Shown in pieces: positions 16,644-60,502 of a stretch of DNA of 64,000 nucleotides. Under the pieces are notes generated by a model that ran no database searches, was not told the origin of the DNA, and worked only from the letters and a program-made list of their open reading frames with translations. The stretch is from a virus (lineage: Duplodnaviria; Caudoviricetes), in the IMG/VR virus record IMGVR_UViG_3300020577_007013. One strand, 5' to 3'. Each line of letters begins with the position of its first letter. Position 1 is the stretch's first letter. The position numbers and the translations under genes were made by a program.

Positions 16644-17024
16644 TTGTTCGCTGGTCTGCCTTCTACCTCAGACCCTAATCTAATTGCCAGATATCTAGAA
16701 AGCGACATAGATGCTATACTCTCCTACCATAGATTAGAACCTAAACGTTTTATGGTGAAGCTAACAAAGTCATCAGACGGCTTCGTGATAGATGGTGTCA
16801 ATTATTATACCATGCTTCTACTTCAAGGTCTGTACGTGGAGCAGAAGTACTCTACAGGTGATGTGGTCTTCGGTAATGGAGCTTATTACTCCTGTCAGTA
16901 TGGATTTATGAAGGATCCTGTCTATAGTGGTCAGTACATAGTAGCAAAGCAACTCTTCGTAAGACAGAGCCAAATGCTAGTAGATTACAAACAAAAAGTA
17001 GTAGCGACCATAGGTTTAATATAG
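16644..17024 (+). CDS. Family A (YxxLLLxG) paralog with C-terminal tag DYKQKVVATI
   Basis: YYTMLLLQG core; start uncertain. Confidence 0.5.
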   Translation: MFAGLPSTSDPNLIARYLESDIDAILSYHRLEPKRFMVKLTKSSDGFVIDGVNYYTMLLLQGLYVEQKYSTGDVVFGNGAYYSCQYGFMKDPVYSGQYIVAKQLFVRQSQMLVDYKQKVVATIGLI

Positions 17025-17337
17025 ATGAATATGGAATTTTTCTGGGCTAGACTACTATTCATTCTCTCGATTGCTTCATTTATATTAGGCATTACGGTCT
17101 TCAGGAAACACTTTAACAAGTTGCTTTACTTGCAGTTCGGGCTTCTCATTGCTGGATTTCTTATACTTTTTCTGTATTACTAATATGAAACTGTTCTACA
17201 TCAATTGGATTAGAAGACCTTACCAGAGTCTAATATTCTGGCTGAAGTGGAAAAAGAAGTGGAAGGCCGACCAAATGAAGGGGCCATTCCCGTATAAAAT
17301 CACAAAAGAAGACCTCCATAGCAGAAATAGAAAAACA

Positions 17338-17610
17338 ACGTCGGGAGACGTCGGGAGACGTCAGGCTCGGTCCAGGCACAGACCGCCGACAGAGCACTAT
17401 ATGACAAGGTCACTGCTCGGGTTCTTATATATAATGACCTACCCCGTACCTAGCTCCCTGCCACTAGGGCCCCTGTCTACCGGCTGGATCACTGGCCGGT
17501 TCACTGGCCGGGTCTCAGGTCCAGTCTCCTACGTACGAGATACCTACGGTCCGGACTCCGGTCCAATCCCAGCCGAAACCACTGGGTGTGTGGAGAGAGA
17601 TTGCTAGCAT
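17338..17610. repeat. GC-rich block with short direct repeats (ACGTCGGGAG x2 + ACGTC; TCACTGGCCGG x2) around an AT island (TTCTTATATATAAT)
   Basis: Seen directly; composition contrasts sharply with the AT-rich flanks. Confidence 0.6.
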
Positions 17611-17969
17611 CTACTTGCCTGGCATCAGCCTGCCTGTTCCTATCATCAGCTGCTTTGATGGCCATGTTCTTTGTTAAAGACAGGCACCATTTCGAGTTGC
17701 TTATGTTTCAATTGCTCGTTTCTGTGGTTGCTATAGTGGGGTATTTGTGGTAGGACCAACAGTGGTAAAGACTTTCAGTAAACAGGTGTTAACGTATGTT
17801 GAATAAACTATTCATGCTAATCGGATTTCTCGTATGCTTAGGAGTCTCATTCTTCTTGGGCTTCAGACATGGGATTTCATCGGACAAGTGTGAGATCATA
17901 ATTCCTTTGTCCATTAAGTGAGTGCCTAAGTAAAAGTCGCTTATCATAAGGTTCAATTATACCTAATGC

Positions 17970-18209
17970 ATGAAAAGGGCTTTACTCTTATTACTGCTGA
18001 TCTCCTGTAATTCAGAACCTAAGAGACATGAACCGGTTTATGTGATCGGTAACATTCAGCTTAGGTGTTATCAGAAAGTAGGAACCAACTATTGCTTCTG
18101 TTGCCATGCTTGGAGAGACGGATGCCAAAATGCTAAAGCAACTTCATTTGAATTTGTTAGCTGTGATTATCCTGAAGCATTTAAGATTCAGTTACGACAA
18201 GTTCCGTGA
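17970..18209 (+). CDS. Small Cys-rich lipoprotein
   Basis: MKRALLLLLLISC lipobox-type signal. Confidence 0.55.
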   Translation: MKRALLLLLLISCNSEPKRHEPVYVIGNIQLRCYQKVGTNYCFCCHAWRDGCQNAKATSFEFVSCDYPEAFKIQLRQVP

Positions 18210-18424
18210 AGATACTCAACAAAGAAGAACGTACTGGACAAGAGTCGCTTTATTCGGAGTCCTATGTTGTGGACTTTAGGGAGAGGAGGTCAGACGGTAC
18301 TTGGAAACGAGTGTCTAAGACCTATTACTCTACCAAGAAAGGGGCTCATAAACAAGTCGCTAAACGATTTGAAAGAGACTTCCAATTTGAGAAGGCTGTA
18401 TTAGATAAGGTAACATATCAATAA
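18206..18424 (+). CDS. Hypothetical protein
   Basis: ORF with GTGA overlap. Confidence 0.5.
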   Translation: MKILNKEERTGQESLYSESYVVDFRERRSDGTWKRVSKTYYSTKKGAHKQVAKRFERDFQFEKAVLDKVTYQ

Positions 18425-18434: not shown

Positions 18435-18827
18435 ATGGAAAACACTAAAGTCTATCTTGCTGGTGGTCTTAAATCAAATTGGCAAGATAAAGTCATAGAC
18501 AGATTAAAGGGACGAGCGATTTTCTTTGATCCTAGACAACACGGTCTCGAGTCTGATGAAAAGCAGTTCACAGTCTGGGACTTACATCATGTGAAGAACA
18601 GCAACCTGCTTTTCGTGTACATTGAAAAAGATTGTCCGTCTTTCTACGGAGCTTCTTTAGAGATAGGATATGCTAAAGCATTAGGAAAGACCATAATATT
18701 AGTGGATGAGAAATCAGAGTCTGACACTCTTTTTGCAAGACAATTCAGAATGATCTTAGCTTCTGTAGATATCAAGGTCGGACTTTTAGAAGAAGGCATT
18801 CAAATATTGAAGAAGTTCTTAACATGA
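18435..18827 (+). CDS. Nucleoside 2-deoxyribosyltransferase-like protein
   Basis: KVYLAGG...WQ...FFDPR...WDL..V...GASLEIGYAKALGKTIILVD. Confidence 0.75.
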   Translation: MENTKVYLAGGLKSNWQDKVIDRLKGRAIFFDPRQHGLESDEKQFTVWDLHHVKNSNLLFVYIEKDCPSFYGASLEIGYAKALGKTIILVDEKSESDTLFARQFRMILASVDIKVGLLEEGIQILKKFLT

Positions 18828-19246
18828 AGCTTCAAATTGAAAGCGACTTCCAGCATAAGAGTCTACACTGTTTGGTAATACCTTATGAATTGGGTCATAG
18901 ATGTGGATATGTAGGAGTACCACACAATTTAGGTGATGCTTACGATCTAGGTTTGGATGTACATGGTGGAGTTACCTTCGAAGGGAGTCTGCTGAAAAAT
19001 GGGCTTTACTATTATGGCTTTGACTGTGCACATAGTGGTGACGGAAAGGATCTCAGTCTGTTGACAGACGAAATGAGAAAGGTTTATGAAGGACTTAATC
19101 TCGGTTATCAAGGAGTCCTCGGACAAGGAGTCGTCAGAACCAAGGAATATGTCGAAAACCAATGTATGTATCTTGCAGATCAGTTGGTAAAACTCGTCAA
19201 AGTGTCTCAATATAAAAAGCAACTTGTAGAAGAGGTATTGAATTGA
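18824..19246 (+). CDS. Conserved phage protein (CGYV...VHGGVTF...GFDCAH) with C-terminal tag QYKKQLVEEVL
   Basis: Motifs seen in the translation. Confidence 0.6.
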   Translation: MKLQIESDFQHKSLHCLVIPYELGHRCGYVGVPHNLGDAYDLGLDVHGGVTFEGSLLKNGLYYYGFDCAHSGDGKDLSLLTDEMRKVYEGLNLGYQGVLGQGVVRTKEYVENQCMYLADQLVKLVKVSQYKKQLVEEVLN

Positions 19247-19825: not shown

Positions 19826-20253
19826 AGTTCCAAATGGTAGCAGGTTTCCCGTCCAATGGCTTCACCAACAGGTTGCTCACCGAACTAGAGCTCAACTATA
19901 CCGGTAATATCCGTTACACAGTAAGACGACTATTCAGTCAACTCAAAGCAGTGACGGGACCTAAGTTCAGTTATGACTGGGAAGGGGAAGACTGCCTCGT
20001 CATAGAGCCCGCTACTTTCAGTGACTGCCTACTTTTCGTAGGGCTCGATGTTGGGGAAGCTATAGTAAACGAGTCGCTTCTCGTGAGAGACGGCAAAACC
20101 TTGTACTACTACGAGGACAGGGCCCTGAAAAAGAGACCTGACATGGGCTACGAAATCAGCTATGTAGTAGGACCTGACAACCGACTAAAGCTCGGATACG
20201 GTGGTCCACTGTTCAGGGAATATAGGGAAAAGGTGGCATGGGAACTTTCGTAA
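19822..20253 (+). CDS. Family A paralog, C-terminal tag EYREKVAWEL
   Basis: FSDCLLFVG core. Confidence 0.55.
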   Translation: MKFQMVAGFPSNGFTNRLLTELELNYTGNIRYTVRRLFSQLKAVTGPKFSYDWEGEDCLVIEPATFSDCLLFVGLDVGEAIVNESLLVRDGKTLYYYEDRALKKRPDMGYEISYVVGPDNRLKLGYGGPLFREYREKVAWELS

Positions 20254-20558
20254 ACTCCTACGTGTGGGTCCTGCTAATTTTGGGGCACTACGTGCTGGTG
20301 TCTTGGCTATCTTTTCGGATTTCGGAATCCAAGTCGGGTTGGGGAACCCTAATCCTGTGGTCCATGGGCTTGGCTCCCTACTGGATTGTGGTAACTCGAT
20401 TCTCGGACAATCTACCGTTGGCCGGCTTCATCTACGATTTCGCAGTAGCGGCCGGTTGGGCCATCGGAGTGCTGCTCTTCAAGGGAGAGACATTCGGGCT
20501 GTGGCAATACGTTGGTGTGGCTCTCATGTTTGCCGGAATCCTGGCATTTCGCAGATAA
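20238..20558 (+). CDS. Small 4-TM membrane protein (SMR/EamA-like)
   Basis: Four hydrophobic segments; C-terminal GE.FGLWQYVGVALMFAGI. Confidence 0.6.
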   Translation: MGTFVNSYVWVLLILGHYVLVSWLSFRISESKSGWGTLILWSMGLAPYWIVVTRFSDNLPLAGFIYDFAVAAGWAIGVLLFKGETFGLWQYVGVALMFAGILAFRR

Positions 20559-20633
20559 TTCGGGAACTAGGATCTCCCGGCTATTATACCTAACCATGGG
20601 ATTTAGCAGGACCGACCGAACTGGTACCCTATC

Positions 20634-22758
20634 ATGAACATCTGTACACTAGAATCTGAGTTTAAGAATCCTTTTGCTGATGAGCTCTTTCGAAGAGTGG
20701 GGCCTGTTTATGGATATATCGGAAGGCGAATAGATGAGGAATTTAAGAAGTTGGGAGTGAAATGGGAGCTGGAGTATGTGGTAGTACCTACCTCGTTCTA
20801 TACCTTCTTGCTCTTCCAAGGCTATGACTTGGCTTCTGCTAAAGCGTTTCTGTCTGCGGTTACGGATGAGGTCTATATCTATTCTTATAATGGTAAGGAC
20901 TATACCAAGGTCTATCAAGAAGTTGGAGTCGCTTTTCGGGACGAAGTCCCGGCTATTCCTGAAAGTTGTCGATTGGGACGGAGGTGGAAGGTGGTCGGGG
21001 AATTGGAGAGACTTTACAAAATTCGAGTGAGGAGCTTACTGTGAAGTACAAACTAGCAAATGGTCTGAAGACCGAATTCAGCGAGAAGCTTCTAGATCAT
21101 ATCAACGGTATCAACAGTAGGAATCCTTTTCTACTCATAGCCAAGGTCATAGACGACTACCTAGATAATTTAGGAGTCTCGTTTGTCCAGCATCCTAGCT
21201 TCTATTTTAGGAATGGTCTGATCAGCGGAAAGGACTTCTTTTCCGAGCTCCTTCTCTTAGGTTTCAACTGTCCAGGAATCAGTGATAGAGATTGTGCAGT
21301 AGTGGGAAATGTAGGGTATTGGATGAATGGGAATATAGTTGAACAGATACCTAGATCTATGAATTCTTACAGTGAATACCAAATCGAAGAGTTTCTTTTC
21401 AAGCAACGGAGTTCGAGTTTAGAGAACTTGTATAAGGCTAAGGTGGTGGAACTCCTATGAACTGGAGACTACGAAGTGGCATAGAAACTGAATTCAGTGT
21501 GGGTCTGATCAGAAGTTTGGGAAGTCATTCTGTTCTTAACGACGTTGCAGACTACCTCAACAAGTTCGAAATACCTTTGGTAGGAGGTTCTGATTTTACT
21601 TTATTTGGAACCAAAATTGCTGGGAAGTCATTCTATTACGAGCTCCTTTTATTGGGCTTTCATTGTCCCGGCATCAAGGATTGGGAATGTGCTCTTGATG
21701 GTGACGATGGGTACTGGTGGTATGAAGGTGGGATCATGTATGTATCTAGACAGCATAATGAATATGATCCATACGAGATAAGAGAATTTCTTCATAAGCG
21801 AGAGAGTGGAGTCAAGAAGAAGTACAAAGAGTATGTTAAAGCACTTTGAGACTTCATTAGACTGTCATTACTCTAGAGTTCTTTTTGAAGAGATCGATAA
21901 GTATAGAGTCTATGATGATCCTAATAGAGTGGCCGCAATGTTGGAAGGAAAATTTATTGAGATATATCAAGCAGTCGGAATCAAAAGACCATTTAGAAGT
22001 CCATCATTCTCAGTATCTACAGACGCACTAGATGATGAAGTTAGAGTAGCCGGAGAAGATATGTTCAGTGCCATGCTTCTTCAAGGATACTTCATTCCTG
22101 AAATCGCTGACTGTGCTAGACCATGTTATTCTGAAGCATCTAATAAACTCTATTACTTTACTCAATATGGACTACAAATAGACGAGACTTTTATTCAGAC
22201 TTTTCCTAGAGAGGTTGTCCATCTAAATAGCTCCCATAGACTTTTCTTAAATTTTAAGGATGTCAGTAAAGAGTACAAAGAGAAGTTGTTAGCAATCTTA
22301 TGATGAACGATTTTAATAAGGAATTCCTTGAGAGTCTTAAGAAAGAGATTGGTGGAAAGCCACTAGACAAACGAATCGAAGATCACATAAAATATAAGAC
22401 TGAAGCCTGGCTCAATGAAAGACTCTGGACATCTAGACAATTCTTTTCTGAGAAACCGACAGTCTCTATAGTTTCAGATAAAAGTTCTTACTCAATCTCT
22501 ATAAATGGAGCCGATCTATACACCTCTCTTCTTCTGCTAGGATACAATGTCCACGATCCAGACCCAACTTGTGTGTTCTATTTCAATGGCTTCAGTGAGA
22601 CCATGACTTGGGATGGAAAGTCTTTGCATTGGAAAGAGAATAAAAGTAGACTCATTAGTGAACCAAACTTTTTCAATTTAGACCCATACTCCCTTATTCC
22701 GAGACCCAATATAAAGATGATGGAAGACTACAAAGATCGGGTGTCGAGTCTTTTATGA
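20634..22758 (+). CDS. Tandem array of five family A paralogs (20634-21044, 21041-21460, 21457-21849, 21833-22303, 22300-22758), each ending in the C-terminal tag
   Basis: Cores FYTFLLFQG, FFSELLLLG, FYYELLLLG, MFSAMLLQG, LYTSLLLLG; ends LYKIRVRSLL, LYKAKVVELL, KYKEYVKAL, EYKEKLLAIL, DYKDRVSSLL. Confidence 0.7.
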
Positions 22759-22964
22759 AAAAAGGGGATCGTGTAAAAATCATTGCTAAAAATAGCATAT
22801 ATAAAGATAGAACCTATGTCATAAAGCATGCTGATAAGACTTCTGAAGTCTATCACTTAGAGTTTCCTAACGGAGATCAAGTTCCATTCTATTCTTATGA
22901 AATTGTTCGTTGTGATCTAGAAGTTCTAGATTCTTATAAGAAAAAACTAATGGAGATTTTATGA
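22755..22964 (+). CDS. KOW/SH3-like small protein with C-terminal tag SYKKKLMEIL
   Basis: MKKGDRVKII start. Confidence 0.55.
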   Translation: MKKGDRVKIIAKNSIYKDRTYVIKHADKTSEVYHLEFPNGDQVPFYSYEIVRCDLEVLDSYKKKLMEIL

Positions 22965-23121
22965 CACCACAAGATGCCAAACAGCTTTATGAAGCAGATG
23001 TAATGACACCTGAACTATGGGCCGAAGCTGCATTGGCTGCCATGGATTCAGTGACTACAAGTTACAATAATACTACAGACATGTTTTGGAGAGAATTCTT
23101 TAAGGAAGTCAAGGGGTACGG

Positions 23122-23436
23122 ATGAACTATTTCGAAGACAAAGTAACTGAGCTGAGAAAGCTTATCGCTATGTCTCTTTCAAAGGAAGAGAGAAAGGCTG
23201 TAGAGAAGCTTTTAAGAGAAGTCGCAAAAGATCAGAGAGAATTTTCTGCCAGAGCAGTTCGCTATTGGTATGACGAGGAGATGGATGAGAAATTGTTACA
23301 TCACATACTACAATGTGAAATCAGAAATGATCCAAGTTGGGGAGCACTTACAGCAGTAGACAAAAACTTACAAGGTCTAATGGATTTAGGAGAAGACTTT
23401 GTCGATGATTACAATAGGAGAAATGATGTACGATAG
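23122..23436 (+). CDS. Hypothetical protein
   Basis: ORF track; ATGA coupling. Confidence 0.5.
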   Translation: MNYFEDKVTELRKLIAMSLSKEERKAVEKLLREVAKDQREFSARAVRYWYDEEMDEKLLHHILQCEIRNDPSWGALTAVDKNLQGLMDLGEDFVDDYNRRNDVR

Positions 23437-23875
23437 TGAAGCAGATACAAGAAAGCATATAGCGAGAGTCGCTGACTTAATAGGTGAAGTTCAAAAGGAT
23501 CTAATCGATAGAGCTCGATATCATGATGCTTCTAAACTTAGTCCTGAAGAGAAAAGCTACTTTGACGAGTACACACCTAAACTAAAAGGGGTCACATACA
23601 ATTCTCCAGAATACAAGCAGTTCCTTGTTGACATGAAGCCAGCTCTCGACCATCACTATGCTAAGTGTCGGCATCATCCCCAACATTTTAAGAACGGAGT
23701 AGAGGACATGAATATTATAGATGTTCTTGAGATGTTACTTGACTGGAAAGCTTCTTCTGAACGTCACAACGATGGAAACATTCGGAAGAGTATCGAGATC
23801 AATGCAGAAAGATTCGGTCTAAGTCCACAATTAAGAAAGATCATGGAAAATACTTGTGACTATTTAAGGTGGTAA
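23423..23875 (+). CDS. HD-like metal-binding protein (DUF5662-type)
   Basis: H...HDASK...ALDHHY..CRHHPQHF...EMLLDW; AGGAG SD before ATG 23423. Confidence 0.7.
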   Translation: MMYDSEADTRKHIARVADLIGEVQKDLIDRARYHDASKLSPEEKSYFDEYTPKLKGVTYNSPEYKQFLVDMKPALDHHYAKCRHHPQHFKNGVEDMNIIDVLEMLLDWKASSERHNDGNIRKSIEINAERFGLSPQLRKIMENTCDYLRW

Positions 23876-24513: not shown

Positions 24514-25725
24514 ATGTCAACGTTCTCTGAAGAACTTTTATCTAGACTAAGAGAAGAGTCTAAAGGGCTGAATTCCTTTTCATCCATAGATAGTCTTATT
24601 AGAAAATTCATTCCTGATAGATCTTTCAGATACCAATGCCATTGGAAAACTTCGTATGAACTGTCAGGAATCATTCCTGATGATTACTATAGTGCTCTAC
24701 TTCTTCAAGGAATCAGAGTTCCTATCTCTTTGGATAGAGACTCGTTGGTCGTCGTCGACGGTAATATAGCTTATGAATGGAATAGGAAACTCATCACCTA
24801 TGACTACAAGAAAGTTGGTCATCAATCATTCAGAAGATACTACGTTGTAAAAGAGTCTGACAGACTGAGTTTTCCTAGTAGTAAGATAAGAGAAGAATAC
24901 TTGGAGAAAGTCAATGAGCTTTTATGAGACTCTCATCTCGATGATTCAAAAAAGATTCGGAAGAGTGAGAGTGGATGTTAAAGCAGTGAGAGCTTATGTC
25001 AGAAAGCTGATCAAAGACGAACGATTTCAATTTGTGGTAAATTCGGACGGGACATTGTCAGACTATACTCACTACGGAGCTCTTCTTATGAGAGGAATCA
25101 AAGTTCCTAGGTCTGTGATCAGCAATAGTCTCTATGTGAGAGATGGGGATATCTACTATTCTTGGTTTAGGGGAACTCTGGTCGCAAATAAATACTCAGA
25201 CTTAGATAAACAATTGAATGTTGGTCATTGGTTCACAGTAAGCGACGGAGATAGACTACAGATAAAAGTCAGTTCCTTAGAAGAGGAATATGAGAGGAAG
25301 GTTCTGTGCATTCTGACTTGAGAGAATGGTTCATTAAGACTTGGTTCGGTCAGAAGCTGACTCCAGAAGTTAGAACAGCCATTAAGATCGATATGAAGAG
25401 AATTCTCCCTTATCAGATCCATTATGTGATCGATCGGAAAGACGGACTCATCCTTGATCTCATTCCTAAAGACTATTACACAGCATTACTATTTAGAGGA
25501 GTGAACATACCCGGAATTGGATCTGGAGATACTGTGAGAGACCGTAAGGTCAATTATTCTTGGATTGCTGGGGAGCTTCAAGTCTTAAGAGTCCCAGATC
25601 ACGAAGGAAAAAGATATGGTTTCAATTATGAAGTAAGAGAAAAAGACAGATTGAAGTTCGCTAAGAGCCCTATTAAAATGAACTATGAGAACAAAATTAG
25701 AGGACTCCTGAAAGAGGTATTATAG
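24514..25725 (+). CDS. Three family A paralogs (24514-24927, 24914-25321, 25306-25725) with C-terminal tag
   Basis: YYSALLLQG, HYGALLMRG, YYTALLFRG; ends EYLEKVNELL, EYERKVLCIL, NYENKIRGLL. Confidence 0.7.
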
Positions 25726-46301: not shown

Positions 46302-46309
46302 TAAAAATT

Positions 46310-47289: not shown

Positions 47290-47464
47290 AAATGTTCATA
47301 GTAATTGATACCCATCTCACAACAGAGAAAAAATTTCGTGTAAAAATCAAGAACTTAGGAACTGGACGAATAGAAGAAGTCGTAGGATTCGTCAAGCTTT
47401 TTAAGTCAAAGCTTCCTGCAGTCAAATATATCAAAAGACTTCCTGGTTGTGAGGTAATCGAATT

Positions 47465-48043: not shown

Positions 48044-48097
48044 AATAGATAGTTGTGGACTAACTAGATATGAACTTTCGCTCGAATAGGAGATAAT

Positions 48098-49036: not shown

Positions 49037-49234
49037 ATTATAGACTTGAAATAAGAGAAATTGATTACGGAATTGTCTACAATGTTTGCAAAGACAAGAA
49101 TCATCCTTATTTCATGAAGATAACACAGACTTATGGCAATGTAAGATGGTGTGGAATTTGTGACGGAATGAAGCCTTTCCCTTATAATGATAAACCATCT
49201 AAAGAATCAATGGACAAACTCAAGGATCTTTTGG

Positions 49235-49570
49235 ATGAGACCATATAGGTCATTGTTTGAATCAACAAAACAAAGACTTGAAAAGTCATTCCAGTGTACA
49301 GATGCTGATGAGAATGGTATTTTTCCTGAGACTTGTCCATTCGGAGAGATAGATACTAATGAGTTCTCTCAGTTCATACATGAGATTGAACAGTTTCCTC
49401 TTACTGAAGAAGAGTTTAGAAGACACTATAGTCTTCCTAAGTTTGATCCCATCTCAGTAGAACTTAGACAAAGAACTCCTGAATTTCGAATTTTCGGAGA
49501 TGTCAATAATAAAAAAGGATTTGTGGTACTCTTCGACGGAGATGTACATTATATTTATGAAAAAGTATAG
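49235..49570 (+). CDS. N-tagged (MRPYRSLFE) protein
   Basis: Start re-called from the tag. Confidence 0.6.
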   Translation: MRPYRSLFESTKQRLEKSFQCTDADENGIFPETCPFGEIDTNEFSQFIHEIEQFPLTEEEFRRHYSLPKFDPISVELRQRTPEFRIFGDVNNKKGFVVLFDGDVHYIYEKV

Positions 49571-50411
49571 GTCATTGTTTGAAGACAAAAAAGAGAGACC
49601 TCAGTTAGAGGAGTTCATTGATGTGTTCATGACTAAGTTTCCTTCAATGTTCGTTAGGGGACTTGGAATTGTTTTAGAAGTTGACGACTGTACAGTCTCT
49701 GTAGATCTCACTCCATTCGATGGTAGAATTCGAATAAGCTCTATCATGGTCTCTGAACCAGATAGAGGAAAAGGAATCGCATCTAAAGTCATGAAAGAAC
49801 TCATAAGTCTATCCAACGAGCTTCAAGTCGAACTTTCTCTTTTAGTAGAGCCATTCGGCAGAGTCAGAACGCTTAACAGACGAGCTCTTTCTAGTTGGTA
49901 TAGACGATTAGGATTTAAACAGAAAGGTGGCAACAAAGACAGTCTCGTCTATGAGCCCCCTATCAAGCTAAGTGGAAAATTCAAGGAGGAGTACTACTCC
50001 TCCGATCTCCAGCAGCATGGAGCAACTTTCGAAGTATTCAAAAATCCCGATAAAGGCGAATTTATGGAAATGAAGGATGTCTCCTTTGTGTACCTTAGAG
50101 GAGTTCTTGTCGGAGACGACGTCTACGTAACTTCAGAATTTTGTACAGACGGTGAGTCTCCTGTAGTGCATTCAGATATTTTAAGAGTTCTGAAAGAGAA
50201 AGGTGTCATAAACGAATATTCCAGAGCTCTCGTTCAAGACGACATGATTGAAAAATACTTCTGCTTCTATATAGAGCAAAATAACAAAGTCACAGTCTCT
50301 GGATCTTATAGCAATTCTTTTATGAGTGGAAACAAAATTGACTTGACACCTTACTTTGAGAAGATCAAGACTCGAATGCCTTGGTTGAGTTATTCTTCTT
50401 CATCTGTATAA
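49557..50411 (+). CDS. N-tagged (MKKYRSLFE) GNAT acetyltransferase plus a second domain
   Basis: V.EPDRGKGIASKVMKEL (acetyl-CoA motif A) and WYRRLGF. Confidence 0.75.
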   Translation: MKKYRSLFEDKKERPQLEEFIDVFMTKFPSMFVRGLGIVLEVDDCTVSVDLTPFDGRIRISSIMVSEPDRGKGIASKVMKELISLSNELQVELSLLVEPFGRVRTLNRRALSSWYRRLGFKQKGGNKDSLVYEPPIKLSGKFKEEYYSSDLQQHGATFEVFKNPDKGEFMEMKDVSFVYLRGVLVGDDVYVTSEFCTDGESPVVHSDILRVLKEKGVINEYSRALVQDDMIEKYFCFYIEQNNKVTVSGSYSNSFMSGNKIDLTPYFEKIKTRMPWLSYSSSSV

Positions 50412-51034
50412 CGACTGAATGAAATGTCGGGATCGTTAGGATCTCTTGGAAGATCAGTAGGACTGTCGTCCCAGACTTCCTCGTAGAGTTCTTTCGATTT
50501 CTCATTGAAATGATTCTTTTCAGCATACTCTCTATCGAGCTTCCAATATCGAATTAATTCTTGAACATCCGCTAAGTCTTTACCTCGATTAGCATTTTTC
50601 CAAGTAAGAAGTTTATATTCGATGAACTTATTGAGAGACAAATAAGGAATGTCTCCTATAGTCTGACTCATAAATTTAGGTTTCTCATAAGTCAGAGACC
50701 CATTTTTACTTTCATAGTTGATGTCAGAAAAAAGAAAGTCTACATTTATCTTATCGTCTGCTATCCATTTGTACTGAATTTTAGAACCTTGATATTTCGG
50801 TTTGAAAGTATGATATCCTTTATCCACCAGTTCATCCAGAAACTTTTGTTTGTCCTTAATGTCGATTAGAATATCGAGATCCTCTGTGACTCTGTAAAGT
50901 TGATGAGCCCTTCCAGCAATTCCTCCGATTATTACGAATTCTATTCCATGTTTTTTTAGAGTCTCTGCTATTATAGGAAGCTCTTTAGAAATGTCCTTCA
51001 TTGAAGATTCGAAAATTCTTGTATATCTATCCAC
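50390..51034 (-). CDS. N-tagged (MDRYTRIFE) nucleotidyltransferase (Pol-beta superfamily)
   Basis: FVIIGGIA...RVTEDLDIL...VDFL...K...RGKDLADV. Confidence 0.75.
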   Translation of the reverse strand: MDRYTRIFESSMKDISKELPIIAETLKKHGIEFVIIGGIAGRAHQLYRVTEDLDILIDIKDKQKFLDELVDKGYHTFKPKYQGSKIQYKWIADDKINVDFLFSDINYESKNGSLTYEKPKFMSQTIGDIPYLSLNKFIEYKLLTWKNANRGKDLADVQELIRYWKLDREYAEKNHFNEKSKELYEEVWDDSPTDLPRDPNDPDISFSRYTDEEE

Positions 51035-51077
51035 GTTTATTTATAATAGACAGATCGAGACTCGATAACTAATTTGT

Positions 51078-51329
51078 ATGAATCCCTACAAAAGTCTCTT
51101 TACCGAAGATCTTATTCCTGGTGGTAAAGCTGACGATGTTAAGACAATCGAAGCTCTTACTTCTAGTGGAGACTCGGTATTTACGGTAGACATTGAACAA
51201 ATCAAAAAAGGTCTTAAAGTAGAGTCTGAGCATACTTCAGATCCTGCAGTCGCACTCGAAATTGTGTTTGATCATCTTACAGAGTTCGATGACTATTATG
51301 ATAGACTCGAAAAAGCAGAGGAAGCATAA
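51078..51329 (+). CDS. N-tagged (MNPYKSLFTE) DUF5661-like protein
   Basis: GGKAD...GLKVESEHT...EIVFDHLTEFDDYYDRL. Confidence 0.65.
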   Translation: MNPYKSLFTEDLIPGGKADDVKTIEALTSSGDSVFTVDIEQIKKGLKVESEHTSDPAVALEIVFDHLTEFDDYYDRLEKAEEA

Positions 51330-52084
51330 TGTATAGGAGCTACTTCACTGAGTCATTTCCTTACATTAAAGAACCGGCTCCCACTAAGTACGGTGAGGAA
51401 TTCAATGTAGAAAGACTTCTCTCACTTGATGAGAAGCAACTTCAGCATGAAGGTCTTCTCCTTACAGAAGCCGGAGTCATCGGTTCTCTCTTAGGTGGAG
51501 CTGCTAAAGCAGTAGGTAAAGGAGCTCTAGCAGTCGGTAAAGCTGTAGGAAAAGCTGCACTTGCTGGCATCAAAGCTGCAGTCACTTCCCTAGGAAAAGA
51601 TCTTGTGACTGGAATTAAAAAGACAGCAAATAAGTACACCCCTAATCTCATGAAGTTCTCAGCCAATGCTTATGAAGAAACAATGAAAAAGCTTCATGAC
51701 AAACTCGTCGCTCCTAAAGGTCTTCAACAGAATATCGTTCCTGTAGTAAATGAACTCTACAATGATATGAAGCCGACCCTTTCAAAGATCATGAGCAATC
51801 CTGAAATGAACGATCAAGCATGGGCAAACTTCATGGGAATTCTCGCTCTTGACTACTTACAAAAAGTCGCTGCTCCTGCTCTTGCTGATTCAGGACAACA
51901 AATCAATGCTAATGAACTCTCAACAATTAGTCAAGCATTTCAGAAAGCACTCCTTACTAAGATGAAACCACTCATGGATCAAGCAGAGAAAAAAGCAAAA
52001 AATCCAGTTCAGACTCCTACTACAACTACACAACAGCAGTTTGACTTCAAACCAGCAGTCACTACAACAGGAGCACAGAAATAA
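51329..52084 (+). CDS. N-tagged (MYRSYFTE) protein with GKAVG amphipathic repeats
   Basis: LLTE followed by AGVIGSLLGGAAKAVGKGALAVGKAVGKAALAG. Confidence 0.6.
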   Translation: MYRSYFTESFPYIKEPAPTKYGEEFNVERLLSLDEKQLQHEGLLLTEAGVIGSLLGGAAKAVGKGALAVGKAVGKAALAGIKAAVTSLGKDLVTGIKKTANKYTPNLMKFSANAYEETMKKLHDKLVAPKGLQQNIVPVVNELYNDMKPTLSKIMSNPEMNDQAWANFMGILALDYLQKVAAPALADSGQQINANELSTISQAFQKALLTKMKPLMDQAEKKAKNPVQTPTTTTQQQFDFKPAVTTTGAQK

Positions 52085-52682
52085 ATGCCAGCACCGCTCG
52101 TTAAATCATTAGCTAAAAAATACCATAAGTCGCCTAAGACTGTGGACAAAAAATTCAAGAGACTGAAGAAAGGAATTGTCGACTCAGGAAAAGGTGGATA
52201 TGGATTGGTTGTTTCTCAACTGAAAAAAGGTCTCAAGAAAGAAGAAACTCAAGTTCCTTATAAGAGATTGTTCGATGGCAAATAAGTATACAGACCCAGT
52301 CGCTCAACTTTTTCTTCAAGGTCGGAAGATAACCACAGACCTTACATTTGAAGAAAATTTTTCCGTTAAAGGGAAGGATGAGCACACTCTAGTAATCAAA
52401 AATACTAATGGATTCGTCCCTGTCACCTATAACAATATCGGATCTTTAGCTAGAATCATTATTACAGTAACTCCACTCACTACCGTGACTGTAGATCCTA
52501 TTGTAACACTTAAATTCACTATCAATGACGGAATGAATCCAATCTACACTATCGATTTACCATTCCGTAAAATTTTCTATTATATGCCTGATACAGTCTT
52601 CAGTGCATACATTACGAACATACAACTCAGTACCACCTCAACAACAGATGTTGAAATCGACTTCAGAGCCTACGGAGAATAG
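52085..52682 (+). CDS. Small basic protein with C-terminal YKRLF (52085-52285) and a beta-rich protein (52275-52682)
   Basis: ORF track. Confidence 0.55.
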
Positions 52683-52792
52683 AACACAACCAGACGAGTC
52701 TGGTGTGAATGCCCTCATTGAGAGAGCTTTACAGAAGCGAAATTTCAAAACAGACTCTGAAATTGATGATGAATGGGAAATTCTGAAGAGAG

Positions 52793-55559
52793 CTAACAAT
52801 CTTTCAGAAGATTCTTGACTTTGTTCATATACTTTTCACCAGGAATCATTGGCATGACTTCTTCTAGCTCTTCACCTGAAATCCAAAAACTTCCATAGTC
52901 AGGTAGACCGACGACCACATGTCGTCCATCTACTCTTTTGACTTCCAAGTAATCAAGTCTTCTTATAATCTCTCTTGGTTTTTTTAGAGTCTCTGATAGT
53001 CCACTCAAATAAACTTCCTTATTTTTCAGTCTAACGTACAAGATCAACCACCTTTTGTTTGTATTCTGACTCTAATTTGGTCTCTTCTTTGAAAAGATCA
53101 AGGTCCTTAGGAGACAATCTCGGTTTTAATCCTTCATATTCTAGAGTAATAATAATTTGTTGAATCGCTTCATCGAACTCTGAAGTACAATAGAAGTCTT
53201 TTCCTCTGTCGATTGCTGCTTGAAATCTTTTTACAGAGGTAGTATTTCCGTATATAGATTGAAGATATCGTTTAACCGGGACTTCGGAGTTAGGTTTTAT
53301 TTTAGCTCTCATAATTTAAGAACCTTGTTGACGTACTTTTCTTTGAGCTTCTCATTTACTTTTTCATTAATGACAAAATGTTTAGGCAAATTGAAGACAG
53401 CTTCTCCTATGCTTAAGATGTAGTCTCCGTCAGTCCCTTCACTCATTGCGAACCAATCATTGTCTTCTTCACTGAGTCTGTTTCCGACGTACTCTTGAAT
53501 AAGCTCACTGCTAATATGTCTAGTCTTGTCAAGAAGGTAGTCTATTCCTGCACTAGAGATTTGCTTCTTTACGAGCATAGATCTAAGACCTTTTCCTTGT
53601 AACTTTTCTCGGAGTCTTTATTCACTTCAGTGAGAAGATTGACGTCTAGATAAACTGAGACTGCATCGGCTTGAATATAGCTTCTTCCCATAAAGCCTGC
53701 TTCTGACATTAGAAATTCTTCATTGTCTTGAATGTATTTGAGAGTCTTGATGTTGAACTTACTGAAGTTGTCTTCTATGAACTTTTGCTTACAACCGATT
53801 TTGAATCTGACTGTCTTCATAGAATTTGTAAGAGCTTTTCCTTATACTCTGTCTCGATTTCAGACTCGACTATATGCACTTGATCTAGGAAAAGACTCAT
53901 GACTCCTGGATTTAGACTGTTCAAAGGATCACTAGGAAAGAGTATGGTGATCAGCTTTCTATTATTAATAGATCTTCCTCTATCTTCAGCTTTGAAATAA
54001 GGGGTTGTTCTGAGTACTCTACTCATACCAGGATAAGCGTCAATGCAATTTTGGAGCATATTTCTTTTAATCATTACCGTCATTCGAAAGATCCTGAACT
54101 TTCTTCTTGTATTCTTCAAACTTTTCTGAATGGACTACCTCATAGGTTCCTTCAGAGAAGTCTATAGACTCTCCCATAAATTCTACCAAAGGTTCTGGAA
54201 TTTTTACAGTGGCTCCACCTTCAATTTTTTCAGCTTCCATATAAGGATTATCGATTAAGAAGTCTCTTAAGACTTTCAAAAGCTTTGTCTCCTGTTTGGT
54301 GAACGGTGAGTCTTTCTTTTTAATCTCATCTTCTAAGAATTCCTTGAATTGGCTTTTGATTCTGTGATCGAGGTTAATTCGCATATCAACTTAGTCTTGT
54401 ATTTATCCATAATAGATGATTTATAGAGTACAAAATAATTAGGATCTATTGGAACAAATCCAGGAACAGAAAGCTCTTCAGGAAGAACCATTTCTACTCC
54501 GGTAGAAGACTTGGAGTTGGTCTCGACTTCGAAGACAGTTACAGAGTCTATGTATTTTAATATGTCTAGTTTTTTCTGATCATCGATGATATTAGACTTT
54601 ACTTTTTTGAAAACTTCTACCAAATGGTCTCTGAACTCTGTTCTTCCATTTCTCAAGAAGACCGCTCTCATAAAAGCTCTCTGACTTTTTTCAAATAGTC
54701 TTCCTCAACCCTAGACTTGATTATTTCTATCCACTCTTCTCGTAGAGGAAATTTTCCGGTATGCTTCTTGTTCAGTTTGTTAAGTGACTCTTTAGGAATA
54801 ATCATTGAGTAGGATCCAACACCCAGTCCCTCGACTACTTCAAATCTCTGTGCATCGACGATCAAATTTATGAAGACCAATTTTTCTTCTTTAGAAAAAG
54901 AGAATTGAAGGTTTTCCAAAGAACTTGTAAGCCATTCCAAACATAGAGTCTTGGCTCCTTCTTTGAAGACTGCTTTCATAATTGGAGAATTTTTTCTTTG
55001 TATTCTTCTTCTATCTTAGAAATCCAAGGAATAGTGGAGTCTGCTTCCACTTTCACTCTTTGTTGACCTATGTTAAGAGTCTCGACTATTACAAAAGATC
55101 CTTCGGAAGTCTTCTCGAAGAGTCTTTCTTTCTTCAGTCCTTCAATTATAGATGTGAAATCAGATGGCTTGACCCCTAATCCTAAAGCTGTGGTGGACAT
55201 TCCCTCTAATTTGGAGATGAGTCTTTCCTTGGCTCCTGGTTTGAAGACCACTTTCATAGTAAGTCCTTCAAACGTTCACTGTAAATGAGTTTGGATTCCT
55301 TTTCCTTGACTACCTTCATAAAAGTCGGATCGACAGGAAACCATTCTGCTTCAAGTTCTTCTCTGAATTGTTTAGGAACGAACAAATCGAAGCCGTCTTC
55401 TGATATGACCCCTTTGAAGTAAGGGGACTTGCCCAAAAATTCTCTCAAAGCTTTAAGCTTCTTACTGTTATTCTTTCTCTCCTTCATTTCAGAGAGAATC
55501 TGTTCTATGTATCTCTCTTTAGAGAGACCATCAAATTGAAGTAGTCTTACGTCATTCAT
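52793..55559 (-). CDS. Tandem array of ten 83-112 aa family B proteins, all ending in the C-terminal tag
   Basis: N-termini M(K/R)(A/V/T)V(F/R/K); ends IYSERLKDLL, EYKEKILQL, DYLKKVRELL, KYKTKLICEL, EYKKKVQDL, EYKEKLLQIL, SYKEKVLDL, KYVNKVLKL, EYKQKVVDLV, KYMNKVKNLL. Confidence 0.7.
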
Positions 55560-56788
55560 AGTCTGTATTCAAAGCCATGTCGATCCAAAATTTAAGAGCT
55601 TCTCTGATGGTAGGCTTCCAACCCTTTTTGTCTTCGATTATGAAGGACATATTTTCTATGATTCCTTCATTTCCTTTTTCATCTACAGGGATTGATTGGA
55701 AACCTGTGTCTTGAATAATCCAAAGTCCATTGTCATCATAGAGAATGGAAGGACTGAAGCCTAGCTTTGTAAAGGACTCTATAATGAAGTCAACTGTAAG
55801 TGTATCGAAGCGATCTGTTAGATACCCTATGATCTCCACTGTCAGCTTGTCTGCTTCAGGATCGTCGTAGTTCAAGTCGAGAAGTTTAGATCTCTTTTCG
55901 ATGAGTTCTGCAATGTGGTTCTGATCGATCATTTAAAGAGCTCCTTTACATTCTCCCCATTGTTCCAGATATAAGCGACTTTATTCGTCTCTGTATTCTC
56001 TAGAATAATGGTAGCTTCTCCATTCCGAATCTCTCTTACTCTCATCCAGACTCCTCGATTAGACTCATGCTTAGGGTCTCTTAATCTGATTGATCGTCCT
56101 ATATGAGTTTTGTCAAGAATCACTTAGAGTATTTTTTAAGAGCTTCTTCCAGAACAGTTTTTCGTTCGGTCGATTTCTTGATAGATAAATTGACTTCTTC
56201 GAGCTCGTTCAGAATCTCTTTATAGATCTGAGATGCTCGTTCTTGTTGTCTCGTTGCAAGCTCTTTGTCAGCGAGCTCCTTAGCTTTAATAAGATTTTCG
56301 CTTTCAATGTCCCCTAATTCCTTAAGTTGATTTTCGCTTATCATTTTTGTCTCCTTTAGTTCTTCAATTATAGTATGACTTGATAGAGTTGGGTCGAACT
56401 CTGAGATGTCTTCAATTTCTCGTTCATCCCAAAAATATCCATCAGAACAAGGTCTTCTGGTCGAAGGTCCTAAGCTATCGACTCTTAGCCATTTTCCTAC
56501 ATTTTTTTGTAGAAGAGTAGAGTCGAAACGGAGACTTGACTTTATTTTAATCCACATTCCGACTTCTATGTCTGAAAATTCTAGTTTTTTCTTAGTGGTC
56601 ACTTCGCATAGATCTGTAACTCTATTTTGGTAGTCTGCAATTGCCCATGAGTTCCTAGTATTGGGATTCTCTATGATTATATGGTCACTACCAACGGATA
56701 ATATTCTAAGCCAGACACCTTCATTCTCTACTTGAAGAGAATCTCTTATCTTAACGAAGTGTCCAATATTTTTGCTTGTTAATTTCAT
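55552..56788 (-). CDS. Hypothetical proteins 55552-55932, 55929-56123 and 56120-56788 (the last two share a repeated IG..I..RD..EN.GVW.R domain)
   Basis: ORF track; repeat visible in the translations. Confidence 0.55.
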
Positions 56789-57202
56789 TTATTCTTCCTC
56801 AAAATCTGGATCATAGTCCTCATTTGAACTACTTGTTTCAATGTTCAACTGATCGAAGAAGAAGTCTCCTTCATCATATCGTATTTCAATACCATTTTTG
56901 ATCTCTATGGTGAGTCCTAATCTTTCCTCAACCGATTCTCCTGGAAGAAGCTCAGTGATACCTATGAGACCGGCGTCAACAGGAAAAGAATGTGAGTATT
57001 CCTTTCCTTCAATGTAACCGTCTCCATTGTAGACCCCATCTCCGTAAGCAGTTCCAGCAGCCCAGACTGTTCGTCCTTTGAAATTATGAACCTTTGATTC
57101 ATCTTCGAACATATCTACATGATCGAGAAGATCTGACCAATCCTCGTCAGGAATTGCATAACAAGGATCTCCAATAAAGTATTTTCCTGGTTTAATTTTC
57201 AT
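56789..57202 (-). CDS. Conserved phage protein (IGDPCY...TAYGDG.Y...VDAGLIG; DUF4241-like)
   Basis: Motifs. Confidence 0.55.
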   Translation of the reverse strand: MKIKPGKYFIGDPCYAIPDEDWSDLLDHVDMFEDESKVHNFKGRTVWAAGTAYGDGVYNGDGYIEGKEYSHSFPVDAGLIGITELLPGESVEERLGLTIEIKNGIEIRYDEGDFFFDQLNIETSSSNEDYDPDFEEE

Positions 57203-57657
57203 CTTGATTCTCCTTCCATAATTTTGTGAAGTACGTGAGTCTTAGATAACTCGAATATATCAGGTCTTTTGTTTCTGAAGTGATTCACTTTTCTGATCTC
57301 TTTAATCATGAATTTGTGAATAGGATTTCTCAATTCGTTTATGTCAAGTTGATCTCTTCCGTAATTGAAAATTGTTCTGATAATAGCATGATTAGGTTGC
57401 TTGATTGACCAACCTTTTATGTTGTCAATTATCATTTTCCTTAAGAACCAAGCTCCGAAAAATGAATCGAGAAGTGTGAACTTATTCGTTAGATTTTTTA
57501 CATTATAGGAAGGAAATGAAAGTCCTCTGTATTTTGTGAGAAAGACGAAGCATCTTAGGAATAACATTTCAAAGATTTCCTTTGAATAACTATAATAGAC
57601 TTCGAGAATCTCAGCTCCTAAATTTTTCCACTTATCGATCGTTTCTCTTAAATCTGT

Positions 57658-57666
57658 ATTATACCA
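57658..57666 (-). promoter_or_regulatory. Extended -10 element TGGTATAAT heading the minus-strand 57.6-52.8 kb operon
   Basis: Perfect TGnTATAAT, divergent from the ACTAA-headed gene at 57711. Confidence 0.5.
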
Positions 57667-57710
57667 TAATTCATGGCAGACAGAAAGTTCCTTAAACACA
57701 CTAACCTTGT

Positions 57711-59153
57711 ATGGAACGATATGAAAGCTTTTATGAAAAGAAAGGAAAGAAGAAGAAATCAACGTCGAAGAGCAAGGAGAAACCCTTGAAAGTCGGAGAT
57801 CGAGTGGTACAGAAAACTTCAGGAATCGAAGGTACTGTTCTAGTAAAACCGACCAAAGACAAGAAATATATTCCCATTAAATGGGACGGAAGCTCTCAAA
57901 CTACACAACATGTAGACTCTATCAAAAAGGTGGAAAAATGAATCCCTTAATCAAATCAATCTCTAAGACTTACAATTTAATCGAAGAAGATGTAGCAGCT
58001 GAATGGGAAGAAATTAGAGAGGAGCTTGGAGTGACCGATGAAAAGATCGGTGCTTCTGTTATCCTTAAAGAATTCAAAGCTAGATACTCCGATGCTACTT
58101 ATAAGTCTCAATTCAATGAAGCAAAAGACATCGTAAAATTTACTTCAGAACAAAAGAAAAAGCTTCTCAAATATTGCTCAGTAAAAGTCGGTGCAATCTT
58201 TCATCAGGCTCTTCTTACTACAGGAACAAGTCCAGAAGGTGAAGCAGAGCTCTTAAATCAAGTCATTGAAAAATTTATCAAAGAAGAGCCTATGAACTTC
58301 AAAGAAGAGCCTAAAGAAGAACCTAAAAAAGAGAAACAAGAAGAGAGCTTCTTTGAAGGAGAAAGCTTCTCAGGAATTTACAAGAAATTGTTTAAGTAAA
58401 GCTTCAGTAGAACCTAGACAATGGAGTACGACCTCGAACAACTCTGGGATGAATGTAAAGAAGAAGCATCTGAAGAAGGGAGAGAAGAGGACTTCAAATA
58501 TCTTCGAGACAAAGTCGCTGAGAAGTTAGGTGAAGAGCCTTTGACAGAGTCTGTCACTAAATACAAACCGTTGTTTACATGAGGAACTCAACTTGAAATT
58601 CATAAAAGAAAAAGGAAGACTCCCTATCTACTCACTCTACATCAAGAATATTGTTCGTAAAGGATTTATAGACCTTAGTGCTGTATTCAACGATCTTTTC
58701 TCACATGAAAAGCGAGACCCAATTTTCAGAGCAGCTGGCTTTATAGGTGCTGTAGCTTGTGAAGTAGGTGAAAGAGACTTTATGAATAATGTCGCTCAAT
58801 ATGCTAAGTCATATTCTGAAGGTAACTTTCAACGATATGTCCCTCTATTCGAAGGAATTGATCCTGTTGAAAAGAGTGCTCCTATTAACAAAGATAAGTT
58901 AGGAAGAGGCAAGGATAAAAAGAAAGTCCTTCCTCTTGATTCAGAAAAGAGTAATGTACCGTTTGATCTTCTTCTTCAAGCTCAAGAGTTGAAAGCTAAA
59001 GGAAAAACATTCGAAGAAGTTCGTAATCATTTCAAGTTAACTCATGATCAAATGAGACAGATATTTTCAGACTATTCAGTGCCGCATGATTTAGAAGCTT
59101 CGTTTAAGAGATCTGACCGACACAGAGATAGAGTTCTTTCACAAAAGCCCTAA
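57711..59153 (+). CDS. ACTAA-headed island of tagged proteins: 57711-57941 (MERYESFYE), 57938-58399 (internal YKSQFNE, terminal YKKLFK), 58421-58582 (terminal KYKPLFT), 58593-59153 (internal RYVPLFE)
   Basis: Tags seen; 58421-58582 (53 aa) translated manually. Confidence 0.6.
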
Positions 59154-60502
59154 GATCTTCTCTACATAAGAGTCCATGTCCCAATTGACAGGACCTAAAA
59201 TATGAACACTATTTTTAGGAACGATCTTTCCGAATCTATGCATAGGGTGAACGCATACCACGTAATAGTCCCTTTGATTTTTGAAGTTCTTCAATGAGAG
59301 TTGATCATTACAATAAAGTATCTGATCATCTTCCACTGTCAATTTAGGAAGATTTTTTCTGACCACAGATCTGAAAAAGCTCATCTGCATTCTGTCGACT
59401 ATTCGACATTTAAACCAAGTCACTTTTAAGTTTCTTTTTGTACTCATCTAAAAGATCATTGACTTCCACAACGTCTCTTGCATCTATCGATGTAAAAGAT
59501 TTTATTCCGAACTTGTCCATAGAAAGCCTTATATAATCGACTCCATTTTTAGGTCCTTGCCACTCCATGACGACATAGAAGACTGTCTGAGAATGATAGA
59601 CTGAAGGCTCATTAGCAAGTCTCCATTTTCTTTCTTCTTCATTCTTAAATCTGACTCTTTTCATAGATGAGTCCATACAAAGTTTCTAAATACTTTAAGG
59701 GAACTAACATAGTCTCGTCTAAATTTGATCCCAATTCGTGTCCGATTGAGAACTTACAGTCTTTATCGTTGTAAATTACATACCAAGTCTCTGGAAAAAT
59801 TTTATGACCTAGAGTAGAGATGTAGAAAGCTCTAGGTCTGTCTTTAGTCTTATCGATAATTTTTTCTCTCATTAAGAATGCTTTTTCAAGCACTAAGGTT
59901 TTGAATCTAATTTTCTTAACCATCACTTAAGAGCTCATCCAACTTGTCGAAGTATTCTATAGAGACTTGTTTATCTTTGTCTTCTGTCAAATCTTTTCCC
60001 GTCCACATTCCGAGTTTATGTCGACAGTCTTGATCTAAATGAATCGTATAGTCGACTGGGTCCATGAGATATCTTGTAGTAGACTGTACAAAGTAGTCCC
60101 TCAATCCAGTCCTGATATCTCTAATTCCGAGACTTATCAGAAAGTCTTCCTCAGACTGACGATCCTTAAATTTGACTTTTATCGTCATCTTTATGTTTCT
60201 TCTTTCTTGTGTATGTCTTCTTGTCTTTGATGACCTTTGTCGGCTTGAGTTTGAATTGCTTTCGAGAGAGTTTTTTGATTGTCTTAGACTTCATTTACTA
60301 GAGTCAGTACATCACATTGATATCGAAGTCTCATAATATTCTTCTTTTTCTTTTTCTCATAAATCGTCTCACAATATCTGACCTCGGTTGGGCTCAAGTA
60401 ATTTTCTGATACAAGTCTTAGAGTCTTTCTATCTGACTCAATTTCAAATAGCCTTACTCCGAGAGAAGTATTGAAAGAGATACCTAGACAGTCCGTAATC
60501 AT
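59139..60502 (-). CDS. Second family B-like array (59139-59447, 59410-59664, 59645-59926, 59916-60188, 60284-60502) with C-terminal tag
   Basis: Starts MKRVRFK, MMVKKIRFK, MTIKVKFK; ends SYVEKILGLL, EYKKKLKSDL, KYLETLYGLI, EYFDKLDELL, RYQCDVLTLV. Confidence 0.6.

Follow-up and report, generated by a model that had tools for sequence, protein, structure and literature searches.

A recurrent C-terminal helical tag on small proteins of a jumbo myovirus-like metagenomic phage, possibly a docking label

We analyzed a 64,000-nucleotide stretch of the virus record IMGVR_UViG_3300020577_007013 (Duplodnaviria; Caudoviricetes), hereafter the window, and found that approximately one-fifth of the proteins encoded on it carry a similar C-terminal element of about 13 residues, predicted to be helical, which we call the tag. 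Judging by analogy with other terminal peptides, we see an even chance that the tag is a portable, lineage-specific C-terminal helix that would serve as an address or docking label for one common reader. The carriers are small proteins of 69-165 residues (median 101.5), and they are encoded in a plus-strand array at 16.6-30.7 kb, after the tail genes, and in a minus-strand array at 52.8-60.2 kb.

The window comes from a metagenomic contig of 253,865 bp, and the tape measure, baseplate wedge, and fibre-like proteins encoded at 0.3-16.5 kb point to a jumbo myovirus-like phage. No close relatives were found in INPHARED or IMG/VR. Two related metagenomic phages were recovered through protein look-ups as short JGI and Logan contigs, the first from sample 3300045313 (contigs L001 and L013) and the second from sample 3300045394 (contigs L010, L015, and L017). 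Both relatives retain the tag and add further members.

Identification and frequency of the tag

The consensus of the tag is S-E-[VIL]-E-[DE]-E-Y-K-E-K-[VLI]-x-[ED]-[LI]-L, usually with the stop codon directly after it. We searched the 146 proteins (21,027 residues) translated from the open reading frames (ORFs) of the window with a loose pattern, [YF]xx[KRE][VLIM]x(2,3)[LIV][LIVC], which gave 27 matches; 22 begin no more than 19 residues from the C-terminus, in stretches that make up 14% of all positions (binomial p = 5e-15). With a 12-column weight matrix, 22 matches scored at least 10 bits; none was internal, each lying no more than 13 residues from a C-terminus, compared with 0.7 matches overall and 0.085 C-terminal matches in shuffled proteins, although this matrix is circular for 18 of these genes because it was seeded on them. 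With a 7-column matrix from which the final L-L was left out, the top 20 ranks were likewise C-terminal sites. Allowing for tags shortened by the stop codon, we count 24 strong carriers, one variant (49033-49248, with Met in place of Tyr), and four weak carriers (16644, 18824, 19822, and 59645); no strong tag is more than 13 residues from the C-terminus. This total agrees with the approximately 29 carriers of the initial annotation. A motif no commoner at C-termini than chance predicts, which that annotation had named as a ground for refutation, is contradicted by these counts. The ORF at 60284-60502, which falls within the span then assigned to the carriers, is a non-carrier.

We then compiled 56 distinct tags from the window and from four loci of the two relatives. 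Tyr occupies position 0 in 52 of the 56, Lys or Arg position +3 in 55, and Val, Leu, or Ile position +4 in all 56. The protein ends exactly at the last Leu of the tag in 26 cases, one residue later in 13, and 2-15 residues later in 17, so that 39 tags end within one residue of the C-terminus. A [VIL]-x-[DE] element ahead of the Tyr is found in part of the tags only. As controls, the tag was absent from all 117 distant homologues among the best 120 fetched proteins and from all 149 homologues examined for the zinc-ribbon carrier 28730, and it is likewise missing from the ORFs of L009, an unrelated phage contig.

Alignments that included the relatives defined family A, with nine members in the window (alignment A3), and confirmed family B (alignment A4). 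The carriers are as follows, with scores from the weight matrix.

16644-17024 (+), family A member with the weak tag MLVDYKQKVVATI followed by GLI; 4.7 bits; aligns in A3
18824-19246 (+), phrog_2164 protein with the lineage-specific, degenerate tag-like tail SQYKKQLVEEVLN; -1.3 bits
19822-20253 (+), family A member with the weak tag LFREYREKVAWEL followed by S; 5.4 bits; A3
20966-21460 (+), family A carrier; tag LENLYKAKVVELL at 21419-21457; 24.2 bits; A3; true start probably near 21041
21457-21849 (+), family A carrier; shortened tag VKKKYKEYVKAL; 13.6 bits; A3
21806-22303 (+), family A carrier; tag VSKEYKEKLLAIL; 22.8 bits; stop overlaps the next ATG; L001 orthologue 97% identical
22300-22758 (+), family A carrier; tag MMEDYKDRVSSLL; 23.1 bits
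22755-22964 (+), 69-residue singleton with a beta-rich body; tag VLDSYKKKLMEIL; 21.5 bits; chimera
24514-24927 (+), family A carrier, modelled representative; tag IREEYLEKVNELL; 27.4 bits
24914-25321 (+), family A carrier; tag LEEEYERKVLCIL followed by T; 27.0 bits; body replaced between tags in L010
25306-25725 (+), family A carrier; tag IKMNYENKIRGLL followed by KEVL; 21.1 bits
28730-29155 (+), zinc-ribbon family protein; tag VRRKYEEKVSELL followed by Q, after the conserved TWVxDxELxxY; 25.3 bits
29512-29748 (+), 78-residue singleton; tag VPEEYMKKVARLV followed by GC; 22.6 bits; its sole match in the window is the tag of 54668
30345-30650 (+), singleton; tag VRDLYENRVKKLL followed by 10 more residues; 22.0 bits
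49033-49248 (+), 71-residue protein; Tyr-less variant tag SKESMDKLKDLL followed by DETI; 15.5 bits; just downstream of a ClpP-class protease gene
52793-53047 (-), family B carrier; tag PGEKYMNKVKNLL followed by KDC; 23.9 bits; A4
53031-53312 (-), family B carrier; tag LESEYKQKVVDLV followed by R; 23.3 bits
53309-53578 (-), family B carrier; shortened tag LKEKYVNKVLKL; 18.8 bits
53569-53820 (-), family B carrier; tag SEKSYKEKVLDLC followed by S; 26.4 bits
53817-54119 (-), family B carrier; tag IETEYKEKLLQIL; 24.6 bits
54067-54384 (-), family B carrier; decaying tag KFEEYKKKVQDLS followed by NDGND; 12.2 bits
54333-54671 (-), family B carrier; decaying tag IMDKYKTKLICEL followed by 13 residues; 10.0 bits; extension kept in L013
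54668-54979 (-), family B carrier, modelled representative; tag VEEDYLKKVRELL; 25.8 bits
54976-55257 (-), family B carrier; shortened tag IEEEYKEKILQL; 24.0 bits
55254-55559 (-), family B carrier; tag SKLIYSERLKDLL; 17.0 bits
59139-59447 (-), small carrier of a second minus-strand group; tag DMDSYVEKILGLL; 23.1 bits
59410-59676 (-), small carrier; tag LLDEYKKKLKSDL followed by V; 15.1 bits
59645-59926 (-), paralogue of 59916 (BLASTP 1e-4); degenerate tag VPLKYLETLYGLI followed by YEKSQI; 2.4 bits
59916-60188 (-), small carrier; tag VSIEYFDKLDELL followed by SDG; 20.2 bits

Similarity among carriers is confined to the tag region

BLASTP connects subsets of family A only, and searches of the carriers against Pfam and PHROGs gave a family match for 18824 alone. 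When the profiles of families A and B were compared with hhalign, only the last 23-29 columns aligned (E-values of 1.4-1.9e-4), and once the tags were removed no profile similarity was found among family A, family B, and the small singletons (E-values of 0.28-0.72 for the cores). These comparisons show the tag to be present on protein bodies without detectable similarity to one another.

Addition, exchange, and recombination of the tag

The zinc-ribbon protein 28730 has 223 homologues (E ≤ 0.001), and in this family conservation extends up to T-W-V-x-D-x-E-L-x-x-Y and the tails beyond this point vary. Among the 150 best of the 223, the tail R-R-K-Y-E-E-K-V-[SA]-E-L-L-Q occurs only in the query and in the close fragment P0150 (82% identical), which supports the addition of the tag, in this lineage only, to a family that appears widespread without it. 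For 18824, the match to phrog_2164 (1.8e-22) covers residues 5-126 and the tag-like tail lies beyond the match; among the best 120 of its 217 homologues, the tail Y-K-K-[QR]-L-[VI]-E-E-V-L is common only to P0002 and P0003, both 62% identical. The tail is lineage-specific, but at -1.3 bits it is degenerate, and the protein, listed as an unrelated tagged singleton in the initial annotation, makes a weak case for portability.

Comparison with the relatives located recombination events at the tags themselves. Where the window has the single gene 22755, contig L001 has two tagged genes (5754-5963 and 5960-6214); the body of 22755 matches the first of these and its tag the second, and the crossover lies inside the tag-coding sequence at E-[VI]-x-D-x-Y. 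Contig L010 has the same one-gene arrangement as the window, and the chimeric gene is intact there and 96% (95.65%) identical. At the neighboring genes 24514 and 24914, nucleotide similarity to L010 ends about 30 nucleotides past the tag of the former and returns inside the tag of the latter, with no match over 24958-25306; by this alignment, one body is exchanged between two tags. Along L013, which covers 45682-64000, nucleotide identity is 97.8% over 45682-53604 and then falls at a sharp boundary to approximately 81-83%. The synonymous divergence (dS) near 1 in the diverged part, together with this identity, points to recombination with a diverged lineage at the tagged array rather than to fast protein evolution.

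At the level of these alignments, the results show that unequal recombination of the tag-coding ends spreads and swaps the tag within the two arrays, which consist of small accessory genes that are translationally coupled. The portability of the tag put forward in the initial annotation is upheld by the addition to the 28730 family and by an indel and a gene replacement with their ends at tags, and it is weakened by the possibility, considered below, that families A and B have a common fold.

A docking label for a common reader and competing explanations

In the docking-label reading, Tyr (0), Lys or Arg (+3), Val, Leu, or Ile (+4), Leu or Ile (+7), and Leu (+8) would fit a groove on one common reader of phage or host origin, with an unfoldase/protease or an assembly scaffold as possible sub-cases, so that a large variety of small proteins would end up in one place or meet one fate. 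The hydrophobic spacing of 0, +4, +7, and +8 is that of short groove-fitting helical peptides, and the near-invariant Tyr and Lys suggest specific recognition.

Several observations weigh against this reading. No reader was found, and binding is argued by analogy with other helical docking peptides. The 17 tags followed by 2-15 more residues imply that a free C-terminus would not be strictly needed, which weakens the case for a reader of the carboxylate-clamp type. There is one clear addition of the tag to an outside family (28730), the second (18824) being a degenerate tag. Finally, structural modelling raises the possibility that the helix may be native rather than added in most carriers, families A and B being distant kin.

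This last possibility, in its full form, holds that the helix is a native element of one old, diverged superfamily comprising family A, family B, and the small beta-rich proteins, that it packs on their own core, and that the transfer to 28730 was a rare recombination accident. We consider it unlikely. The AlphaFold2 model of family A (24514) has a mean predicted local distance difference test score (pLDDT) of 78.5 and, with H for helix and E for strand, the order H H E E H E E E E H; that of family B (54668) has a pLDDT of 81.7 and the order E H H E E H E E H. The two are alike in a succession of two helices, a hairpin, a short helix, strands, and a final helix, and both families have a h-h-[IV]-P-x-x-[FY]-x-x-x-L stretch after the hairpin, so that distant kinship between A and B is possible. 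In addition, the hhalign match between them, at its longest (29 columns), takes in the strand before the helix, and tandem arrays of paralogues are typical of duplication and divergence.

Other results speak against a common native helix. Apart from the lack of profile similarity among the cores, the structure searches diverge: the family A model gave 12 chains at Z ≥ 2 (best Z 2.4), whereas the family B model gave 1319 (best Z 4.9), and neither had a significant neighbor; weak SH3-like matches of model B (Z 3.3-3.5) in most cases stop short of the tag helix or close to where it begins. The tag helix, at residues 123-136 in A (pLDDT 63-69) and 90-102 in B (pLDDT 68-73), is the least confident element of both models, though it is the most conserved in sequence. 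A strong tag on the unrelated zinc-ribbon family, and a tag swap that yielded the intact gene found in L010, likewise run counter to a helix built into a single fold. The claim of the initial annotation that unrelated families carry the tag accordingly stands as far as the dissimilar cores and the zinc-ribbon protein 28730 are concerned, and it is qualified by the similar element order of the A and B models.

We regard as distinctly unlikely the alternative that the helix is a portable self-association element, through which the carriers would form homo- or hetero-oligomers by way of short helical bundles. The hydrophobic stripe of the tag, at -4, 0, +4, +7, and +8, needs to be buried somewhere, and burial of this kind would be independent of the body. 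On the other hand, a length of 13 residues is small for a stable bundle, the hydrophobic moment exceeds that of shuffled sequences only modestly (0.37 compared with 0.29), and the near-invariant Tyr and Lys point to specific recognition over generic packing. A complex prediction with one family A and one family B carrier, addressing tag-to-tag association, returned a score of 0.01 and counts neither way.

In a more specific version of the docking label, the tag would be the common handle of a library of phage adaptors, in which some 25-30 variable small binders would each capture a different host protein, for example a defence component, and pass it to one machine of the phage or host, either an unfoldase/protease or a sequestering scaffold; we rate this version as improbable. 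We give very little credence to the idea that the tag is a membrane-targeting amphipathic helix like those at the C-termini of MinD and FtsA: it is a short, predicted terminal helix with one hydrophobic face, but it offers four or five hydrophobic residues only, and, with a median net charge of 0 (range -4 to +6) and acidic flanks, it lacks the cationic character of MinD/FtsA-type helices, suited to anionic lipids.

Selection on the tag as a peptide

Comparison of orthologues gave a dS of 0.72 for the tag and 0.73 for the bodies, and a ratio of nonsynonymous to synonymous divergence (dN/dS) of 0.12 for the whole tag, 0.11 for its key positions, and 0.15 for the bodies. The similar dS values and low dN/dS indicate that the genes are real and under purifying selection, with no constraint on the DNA of the tag beyond coding. 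Within the tag codons, TAT and TAC are about equally used for Tyr, both AAA and AAG occur for Lys, and several codons serve for Val; at the Tyr, Lys, Glu, and Leu (+7) positions, codon usage is that of the background. The last Leu codon is skewed to TTA/CTA, an effect of the ATGA overlap between the stop codon and the following start, and there is a mild excess of GTG/TTG at +4, with AAG-GTG mildly enriched at +3/+4. Overlap with the next gene occurs in 20 of 24 carriers and in 50 of 79 non-carrier small genes; since the latter have the same ATGA overlaps and no tag, translational coupling neither requires nor explains the tag. We conclude that selection acts on the tag at the peptide level, and the reading of the tag as a DNA or RNA element is rejected on account of synonymous drift.

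For these reasons, together with the persistence of the motif in tags that have 3-13 extra residues, it is most improbable that the peptide lacks function and that its 3' end is kept as a recombination joint and/or as the translation-initiation region of the next overlapping gene, even though the indel and the replacement end at tags, most carriers overlap their neighbor, and the codon skews at the last Leu and at +3/+4 would be in keeping with it.

Genomic setting and neighboring genes

The neighborhood of the minus-strand array, as seen in the relatives, is accessory and counter-defence in character and is not a head module. In the relatives, the minus-strand array prolongs a long same-strand run that starts with RNA ligases, a polynucleotide kinase-phosphatase (PNKP), Thg1, a CCA-adding enzyme, and a homologue of the anti-Pycsar protein Apyc1. 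The following genes and intervals were recorded around the arrays.

63464-64000 (-), ORF cut by the window end, the 3' part of an anti-Pycsar Apyc1 homologue
48098-49036 (+), ClpP-class serine protease, matching PF00574 (3e-12) and PHROG head maturation protease families
49500-50411 (+), GNAT acetyltransferase
50390-51034 (-), AbiEii-like nucleotidyltransferase, matching PF08843 (7.5e-8)
22961-23125 (+), 54-residue protein
23399-23875 (+), DUF5662 protein
34276-39718 (+), family of seven paralogous genes linked by BLASTP (34276, 35726, 36061, 36485, 36834, 37280, and 38936)
17025-17960 and 20250-20960, intervals with odd ORFs only

Upstream of the Apyc1 homologue, the relatives encode two RNA ligases, PNKP, Thg1, RlaP, and a CCA-adding enzyme (L017:1-10007), a block that, from these assignments, looks like an RNA-repair and counter-defence module. 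The ClpP-class protease has a signal-peptide-like N-terminus (MKKFLAPFLLLSLVAADD), followed by a coiled-coil stretch and then the protease domain, an arrangement that is odd for a prohead protease. As a nearby protease it was considered as a reader of the tag and dropped, because this N-terminus makes contact with cytoplasmic proteins unlikely.

A second motif occurs at the opposite end of another set of proteins. At least 20 proteins encoded on the plus strand at 7935-52084 start with M-x-x-Y-K-x-x-F-x-E (e.g., 31953, 32744, 35726, 39715, 43000, 43989, 46310, 47008, and 51078), and none of them has the C-terminal tag. We examined whether this could be the same signal and rejected it, as it scores approximately 5.5 bits on the tag matrix. 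The phage would thus appear to label one set of proteins at the N-terminus and a separate set at the C-terminus. Several members of the seven-gene paralogue family have the N-terminal Y-K-x-x-F-x-E start, and the AbiEii-like nucleotidyltransferase and the GNAT acetyltransferase lie between the two tag systems.

Inside the plus-strand array, the 54-residue protein and the DUF5662 protein are 98-100% identical in both relatives, while the tagged genes around them reach just 27-97% identity; by this measure the two are strongly constrained within a variable cluster. The intervals 17025-17960 and 20250-20960, in which translations are of low complexity or membrane-like and the G+C content is locally higher, have no tRNA or Rfam match and are possibly non-coding. 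Searches of the window for tRNAs and Rfam families gave no match, and those for promoters and terminators gave matches not above shuffled sequences.

The sequence ACTAA is found at the position of a ribosome-binding site, 7-11 nucleotides upstream of the ATG, in the genes at 298, 1671, 4749, 7315, 8664, 12428, 29837, 31588, 38035, 40568, 43000, 45831, and 51078. These genes do not overlap their upstream neighbor, and some other genes have AAGGA/GGAG instead. Possible roles for ACTAA are those of an unusual signal for initiation, a promoter motif, or a processing motif.

Implications

The small orphan genes of huge phages number in the hundreds and have no assigned function. If a fifth of them had in common a transferable C-terminal label, many would act via one route, and the label could be used as bait for its reader or removed to disable the whole gene class at once. 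Recombination from tag to tag, which swaps bodies ahead of a constant tail, would be one way in which such arrays renew themselves. The tag could also be used to target proteins inside phage-infected cells, should its reader prove to be a protease, a capsid, or a host machine.

Comparison with known systems

We found no account of such a phage tag in the literature searched, and none of the microcompartment, encapsulin, T4, degron, and F-box/PRANC systems fits it as a family. The initial annotation had drawn an analogy with the F-box and poxvirus ankyrin/PRANC libraries, which likewise combine a variable body with a constant C-terminal module in a large, fast-changing set of paralogues of a big virus. 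There, however, the module is a folded three-helix domain of 40-50 residues read by Skp1, whereas the region shared here spans 13 residues (23-29 profile columns) and has no Pfam match. The beta-clamp-binding tail (QL[SD]LF or QLxLxL) differs in sequence, as Y-K-E-K-V-x-E-L-L has no Gln at the equivalent place.

The C-terminal degrons and adaptor tails read by AAA+ proteases, such as ssrA LAA, MuA RRKKAI, and the XB peptide of SspB, resemble the tag in being short, transferable C-terminal peptides that deliver proteins to one machine. The tag differs from them in that its motif is another, helical and longer one; as to position, 39 of the 56 copies end within one residue of the C-terminus and 17 are not at the very end.

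Encapsulation peptides of microcompartments are amphipathic helices at either terminus, and the cargo-loading peptides of encapsulins are C-terminal; both are read by a shell protein. In these systems the cargo consists of enzymes, whereas the carriers described here are tiny orphan proteins, and the motif differs; no shell family was found among the approximately 50 window proteins covered by family scans. The likeness lies in a portable, short terminal peptide on unrelated cargo, and the tag agrees with it in its predicted helices (123-136 and 90-102) and its unrelated bodies. The capsid targeting sequence of T4, present on IPI-III and Alt, sits at the N-terminus, from which the prohead protease removes it, in contrast to the C-terminal position of the tag and to the accessory, counter-defence context of the tagged genes. 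What it has in common with the tag is that, within one phage, a common short peptide serves as an address on many unrelated small proteins, as we propose that the tag may do.

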